From the NCBI RefSeq assembly GCF_003334305.1, contig NZ_QOWS01000088.1: a stretch of DNA of 233 nt. One strand, 5' to 3'. Positions 13 through 233 of the stretch are shown here, one piece after another; the first letter of the stretch is position 1, and each line of letters starts with the position of its first letter. A program made the translations under genes and the position numbers. The DNA is from Escherichia coli (GTDB taxonomy: Bacteria; Pseudomonadota; Gammaproteobacteria; Enterobacterales; Enterobacteriaceae). Below the pieces are notes generated by a model that worked only from the letters and a program-made list of their open reading frames with translations, made no database searches and had not been told where the DNA came from.

Positions 13-233
13 TTAAGCCCGCATCTTTACCTGGCGACCAACAGCGCACAGGGGCCGTGGTGGATACTGGGGTGGTCAGAGCGGGTGCCGGGTGCTGAGG
101 ACGTACTGCCAGCGCCGCTGCCGCCGTACCGGGTGCTTACCGGGCTGGCAGACCGTTTCGGGCGGACGCTGACTTTCCACCGGGCAGCTAAGGGTGACGT
201 GGCGGGCGCGGTGACGGGGGTGACGGACGGCGC
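1..233 (+). CDS. Internal fragment of a protein-coding gene (frame +1, partial at both ends); hypothetical protein of unknown function
   Basis: Frame +1 (codons at 1-3, 4-6, ...) has no stop codon across all 77 complete codons, whereas frames +2 (TAA 14-16, TGA 170-172), +3 (TGA 96-98, TAA 189-191) and all three reverse frames contain stops. Hand-counted positional GC is about 73% (pos 1), 57% (pos 2), 77% (pos 3), the GC3>GC1>GC2 pattern expected of a real gene, with G enriched at codon position 1 (31 of 77). Amino-acid composition is varied (W, Y, F, H, K, D, E present), unlike the Ser/Pro/Thr/Ala-rich antisense translation. No ATG occurs anywhere on the + strand and no terminal stop is present, so both gene ends lie outside the window. 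At this GC content an open 77-codon frame arises by chance about one time in five, so confidence is moderate. Confidence 0.55.
82..95 (+). repeat. Perfect tandem direct repeat of the heptamer CGGGTGC (2 copies)
   Basis: Read directly: 82-88 CGGGTGC and 89-95 CGGGTGC. The overlapping 9-mer CCGGGTGCT (88-96) recurs at 129-137 in a different reading-frame phase, so the repetition is at DNA level rather than protein level. Confidence 0.85.
193..231 (+). repeat. Short-period coding repeat: GGTGACG motif three times (193-199, 210-216, 219-225) encoding G-x-x-x-G-x-x-x-G-x-x-x-G
   Basis: Read directly: GGTGACG occurs at 193-199, 210-216 and 219-225; 211-219 (GTGACGGGG) and 220-228 (GTGACGGAC) form an imperfect in-frame 9-bp tandem (7 of 9 identical). 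In frame +1, glycine falls at codons 65, 69, 73 and 77 (193-195, 205-207, 217-219, 229-231), giving GDVAGAVTGVTDG with Gly every fourth residue. The pattern runs to the end of the window. Confidence 0.5.

Follow-up and report, generated by a model that had tools for sequence, protein, structure and literature searches.

The 233-nt stretch of Escherichia coli DNA analysed here (the window) carries a cluster of four guanine runs on one strand, and the question that it raises is whether these runs form a G-quadruplex (G4) with a role of its own or merely reflect the protein encoded there. The original prediction placed the runs at 182-184, 192-194, 204-206 and 216-220 with loops of 7-9 nt on the sense strand, and our regex scan confirmed these positions exactly, the first three runs reading GGG and the last GGGGG. 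The loop lengths also held, at 7 nt (185-191), 9 nt (195-203) and 9 nt (207-215), and frame 0 of the + strand is the annotated coding frame.

The window (positions 1-233) corresponds to codons 164-241, on the + strand, of a gene for an RHS element core protein. A 100% match was found in E. coli strain A7 (NZ_CP028767.1, 2341256-2341488, + strand), within a CDS annotated as 'RHS element core protein', and the protein of the window gene is WP_240770959.1 (1417 aa), with frame 0, the frame of this CDS, open across the whole window. The protein matched the NCBIfam RHS_core equivalog NF041261.1 with 2675.8 bits over residues 1-1257 (cut-off 2000) and TIGR01643 (YD repeats) in six stretches; TIGR03696 (Rhs-associated core) spans residues 1180-1257, and the sequence DPIGL, corresponding to the DPxGL cleavage motif, begins at residue 1243 and ends the core domain. 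The GC content is 64% in the core and 0.37-0.39 in the C-terminal tip, beyond CDS position 3600. The gene vgrG lies directly upstream, dsORF-h1 followed by an ISAs1 (H-repeat) transposase remnant lies downstream, and in strain A7 the element is flanked by yncH and pptA. Known E. coli Rhs core ORFs (RhsA-E and further subfamilies) combine a GC-rich core with an AT-rich C-terminal tip and are T6SS PAAR-Rhs toxins. The window gene resembles them in its YD repeats, DPIGL-ended core, AT-rich tip and upstream vgrG, and its locus resembles E. coli Rhs elements in having dsORF-h1 and the ISAs1/H-repeat remnant downstream. Judged from these sequence features, the window gene is an E. coli Rhs core gene, the carrier of a T6SS PAAR-Rhs toxin, in a textbook Rhs element. 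Unlike the usual E. coli Rhs cores, however, the window allele is a chimera, in which two core subfamilies are joined within a short interval just 5' of the first G-run (Table 1).

Table 1. Coordinates of the features discussed and G-run content of homologous segments. Positions are those of the window unless locus L001 is named; runs in homologues were counted over the homologous 64 nt.
Feature	Position or segments	Strand	Remarks
Rhs CDS in 16 kb locus L001	7512-11765		Annotation
Window in locus L001	8001-8233		Position 1 is the first base of codon 164
Second G-rich patch	51-92	+	GGGG 51-54, GGGG 69-72, GGG 83-85, GGG 90-92
Crossover interval	155-175 (L001 8155-8175)	+	RhsD-type 5', second Rhs core subfamily 3'
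Four-run permissive G4 motif	182-220	+	Regex; encodes residues 224-237
RhsD-type genes	L002-L007, L019 (including K-12 rhsD)		0-2 G3+ runs, no motif
RhsA/B/C-like genes	L009, L010		0-2 G3+ runs, no motif
Other Rhs core subfamily	L008, L011-L017 (eight genes)		All four runs present
E. coli CKJ_1000_3.1	L018		Other subfamily downstream (96% identity); foreign patch ~166-216, runs missing

The arrangement of the runs follows that of the codons. The residues encoded across them are R-A-A-K-G-D-V-A-G-A-V-T-G-V (RAAKGDVAGAVTGV), and the codons are ...cac cGG Gca gct aaG GGt gac gtg gcG GGc gcg gtg acG GGG Gtg acg... at this place. Three of the runs span junctions between a codon and a following Gly codon (aaG GGt, gcG GGc and acG GGG Gtg), and the remaining one, at 182-184, spans cGG Gca. 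Alignment of the query to solved Rhs structures (Tse5, 8cp6) stops at residue 169 and resumes at about residue 294, so that the runs fall in a poorly conserved part of the protein, after the N-terminal region and before the first repeats that align well. Seven further G3+ runs in the window were absent from the original prediction: the four of a second G-rich patch (Table 1), and those at 131-133, 142-144 and 160-162. The first two loops of the second patch are 14 and 10 nt long, and the patch encodes a conserved G-P-W-W-I-L-G-W stretch.

To judge how many such patterns are to be expected, we used two null models. The window is 69% GC, with 94 G versus 67 C, and the Rhs core has G at 47% of its third codon positions and a Gly content of 10%. 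We shuffled the window 5000 times with its dinucleotides preserved, and a four-run G3+ motif occurred at least once in 17% of the shuffles when loops of up to 7 nt were allowed, in 27% with loops of up to 9 nt and in 42% with loops of up to 12 nt. The number of GGG+ runs in the window (11 observed versus 9.6 expected, P=0.28) and its maximal G4Hunter score (1.60 versus a shuffle mean of 1.62) were likewise close to expectation. The second and stricter model consisted of 3000 permutations of the synonymous codons in the 3.6 kb core, which kept the protein and the codon usage of the gene. Under this model, the core contained 87 GGG runs versus 89.2±4.1 expected and had a maximal G4Hunter score of 1.76 versus 1.81±0.18, and the number of motifs with loops of up to 9 nt was slightly but non-significantly high (2 observed versus 0.79±0.81, P=0.18). 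Such a motif fell over the 182-220 spot in 21% of the synonymous shuffles, and the probability of all four runs, given the peptide and the codon usage of the gene, is about 0.10, the relative usage of the codons concerned being 0.42 for CGG, 0.52 for AAG, 0.66 for GCG, 0.56 for ACG and 0.35 for GGG. G-run density tracks GC content, with 24 runs per kb in the Rhs core, 15 in vgrG and 7.5-9 in the flanking genes. The G-run pattern at 182-220 is therefore no more than chance gives. More generally, permissive G4 patterns, with loops longer than 7 nt, are expected by chance in G-skewed sequence of 65-70% GC and should be judged against a synonymous-codon null. The sole other motif of this type (loops of up to 9 nt) in the 16 kb locus, at L001 10547-10581 (CDS 3036-3070; GGGCCGCCGGACGGGAAAACGGGTGTGGCGGCGGG), likewise lies on the sense strand within the Rhs core, and none was found on the opposite strand of the 16 kb locus.

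We aligned 18 homologous segments with the window (Table 1). The whole window, at 99% identity or higher, was present in only one of 5,426 complete E. coli genomes, that of strain A7, and the next best full-window matches were RhsD-type genes with about 90% identity. The segment 176-233 (58 nt), in contrast to the full window, is widespread, with 2,469 occurrences in 2,049 of the 5,426 genomes, O157:H7 strains among the carriers, and every occurrence listed sits in an Rhs-type CDS. The RhsD-type and RhsA/B/C-like homologues keep the peptide pattern A-G-D/E-x-x-G-x-I/V-T-G-V-T-D-G, but have C or T at the synonymous sites 183, 204, 216 and 219, and a GCC or GCA (Ala) codon replaces the AAG (Lys) codon ending at 192. 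The motif, as this alignment indicates, is a trait of one Rhs core subfamily allele and not of Rhs genes generally. Within the eight genes of the other subfamily, which are 88-95% identical to the window over 170-233 and 93-98% downstream of 233, the four runs are invariant and some loop bases vary. This invariance may be compatible with constraint at the runs; it is uninformative on selection for structure, however, because divergence is low and most run positions, being positions 1 and 2 of Gly codons, are non-synonymous. We also considered conservation as evidence for function and rejected it, since no synonymous position of the runs is the same in all subfamilies and the divergence within the subfamily is too low. 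Conservation beyond that of protein coding, which a selected G4 would require, was thus not found across the homologues.

The reading that fares best among the alternatives, although improbable, is that the runs form a weak three-tetrad, long-loop G4 in the non-template DNA or the rhs mRNA, modulating elongation, translation speed or mRNA stability. The motif lies on the sense strand and fits the permissive pattern G3+N1-9, and it is the single match in the window to G3+N1-12; neither the window nor the 3.6 kb core matches the canonical pattern (four G3+ runs with N1-7 loops), and two loops of the cluster are 9 nt long. G4Hunter scored the 39 nt of 182-220 at 1.36, with a maximum of 1.48 in overlapping 25-nt windows, which exceeds the permissive threshold of 1.2 but stays below the 1.5 (25-nt window) taken as the criterion for a stable G4. 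The authors of G4Hunter describe scores of 1.2-1.5 as 'not so straightforward' and state that, where the search is for stable G4s only, a false discovery rate below 10% requires a score of 1.5 (PMC4770238). The highest peak in the window, 1.6, is at 51-75, outside the cluster. In ViennaRNA, the quadruplex had a modelled energy of +1.62 kcal/mol (three layers, 25 loop nt), non-negative because of the total loop length of 25 nt, versus -8.3 kcal/mol (39 nt) and -20.8 kcal/mol (59 nt) for competing Watson-Crick hairpins using the same G's, and no quadruplex appeared in the minimum free energy folds of 39, 59, 233 or 433 nt when quadruplexes were allowed. The predicted folding energy at 182-220 is thus not favourable relative to the Watson-Crick alternatives. 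The original prediction had called for a G4Hunter-style check, and had held that a low score or loops too long for stable folding would speak against a G4; the values obtained (1.36-1.48, under the 1.5 for confident stable G4s, and +1.6 kcal/mol) are of this kind, and its description of a weak potential at the permissive limit, deserving a low rating, was well founded. Two-tetrad alternatives, such as GG-C-GG-GCGC-GG-TGAC-GG at 201-217, were also considered and rejected, their energies being about +5 kcal/mol by the same formula and none of them occurring in the folds. Unusual Watson-Crick structure was rejected as well for either strand, as DNA or as RNA, with the folds being ordinary when compared with shuffles (z from -0.33 to +1.12).

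Published data bear on this possibility from both sides. DNA oligonucleotides examined in isolation folded in K+ in vitro with loops as long as 15 nt, their melting temperature falling by about 2 degrees C per loop nucleotide (PMC2995061), so that long-loop DNA G4s are able to form in vitro. Marginal folding of the naked single strand at 182-220 may likewise occur in vitro, although the loops of those oligonucleotides were not of the kind that pairs with the runs. The cluster shares with the permissive long-loop G4 sequences (G3+N1-12) its four G3+ runs on a single strand, separated by loops of 7, 9 and 9 nt; unlike that class, it lacks any short loop that would offset the long ones, its loops are GC-rich and pair with the runs, and the motif is neither enriched nor conserved. 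In E. coli, rG4-seq detected 168 sites in vitro, some of them inside coding sequences, but only 0.6% were of the long-loop class and none was canonical (PMC6974567). No rhs gene was found in the text or supplementary text files of that paper (PMC6974567), the strain of which probably lacks a run-bearing allele, so that this absence counts as weak evidence, and a literature search on G-quadruplexes, E. coli and rhs found no relevant work, as judged by title and abstract. Taken with a motif no commoner than in synonymous shuffles and missing from the sampled RhsD-type and RhsA/B/C-like homologues, and with a modelled energy of +1.6 kcal/mol versus -8 to -21 kcal/mol for the Watson-Crick folds, these data lead us to infer that no quadruplex forms or matters in vivo.

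The G-run cluster is instead very probably a functionless by-product of base composition, and it does not count as a real, functional element. The DNA at 182-220 serves to encode residues 224-237 of the Rhs core protein. Rhs cores are GC-rich and G-skewed on the sense strand; a Lys, Ala or Thr codon ending in G yields a GGG run wherever it precedes Gly (GGN), and three such junctions, together with one CGG-GCA junction, happen to lie within 39 nt. We base this reading on what was observed here, namely the identity of the gene, the codon anatomy, the frequency expected by chance, the predicted instability and the absence of conservation from one subfamily to another. The suggestion in the original prediction that the runs are a by-product of GC-rich coding with Gly codons is borne out by the codon junctions, the codon usage and the shuffles. 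The codon usage and glycine content of this known gene family, which is GC-rich and was acquired horizontally, suffice to explain the runs.

The neighbourhood of the runs does contain a recombination junction. We mapped it using the sites at which the RhsD-type and the other subfamily consistently differ. From -39 to 154, all informative sites are of RhsD-type in the window except one, which matches neither type, and from 176 to at least 399 all are of the other subfamily's type. Identity to K-12 rhsD is accordingly 97.6% over 1-165 and 67% over 170-233, versus 76% and 95%, respectively, for L012, a member of the other subfamily; more broadly, the 5' part of the window is 97.6-98.8% identical to K-12 rhsD and L019, and the sequence from 176 is 95-98% identical to L011-L014. 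The first G-run starts 7 nt past the crossover interval. This interval encodes R-F-G-R-T-L-T and is near-identical in all subfamilies, with divergent sequence on both sides, and it is therefore where a crossover is both possible and detectable. Other mosaic boundaries were seen in the 13-sequence sample, at window positions ~62-70 in L016-L018 and at 3-19 in L008, and in L018 an RhsD/RhsA-like version of ~166-216 replaces exactly the run-bearing segment. By comparison of the aligned subfamilies, these mosaics are further boundaries and short gene-conversion patches within the same 300 nt. The junction at 155-175 has some descriptive value for the mosaic evolution of Rhs genes, which is itself already known.

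Rhs elements have been named as rearrangement hot spots, and the pilE G4 of Neisseria gonorrhoeae, which has very short loops, is non-coding and initiates recombination, has been tested genetically. By analogy, the G-runs might fold into a structure that promotes recombination, or gene conversion, among rhs copies, a reading that we regard as very unlikely. Its most specific version, equally hard to credit, is that the cluster would form a transient quadruplex in the non-template strand on transcription, seeding recombination or gene conversion where the N-terminal region meets the core; if true, this would explain both the 155-175 junction and the L018 conversion patch and would give the Rhs 'rearrangement hot spots' a structural initiator. 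The clean crossover between RhsD-type and other-type sequence immediately 5' of the first run, which such a structure would account for, and the exact coincidence of the L018 patch with the run-bearing segment are in its favour, and the cluster is like the pilE G4 in adjoining a site of recombination between paralogous sequences. However, the argument is post hoc and based on one or two events, a crossover in an interval shared by all subfamilies is expected from homology, other junctions in the sample lie elsewhere, and the G4 is predicted to be unstable. The cluster further differs from the pilE G4 in having loops of 7-9 nt, coding runs, a predicted stability of nil and an association that amounts to one junction.

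Finally, the proposal of a structured RNA element or an overlapping second gene in this region, instead of or besides the Rhs frame, is effectively refuted and extremely improbable, since of the short ORFs that might suggest it (76-180 on the - strand, 34 aa, and 92-172 on the + strand, 26 aa) neither overlaps 182-220, the region has no Rfam match at E<=1 and its fold energies are indistinguishable from those of shuffles, and frame 0 is open and matches the curated equivalog model over residues 1-1257.

The C-terminal tip, at L001 ~11240-11762 (residues ~1243-1417), contains a HEFAH motif of the HExxH type, and a Pfam search with the C-terminal 178 residues gave a weak match to Peptidase_M91, the NleD-like effector protease family, that was below significance (E=0.0023), suggesting that the tip may be a zinc-metallopeptidase toxin domain. 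The downstream dsORF-h1 is the presumed immunity gene. Right after the Rhs element, at L001 12487-13260, lies a pseudogene of an ISAs1-family (H-repeat) transposase, representing the classical H-rpt component.
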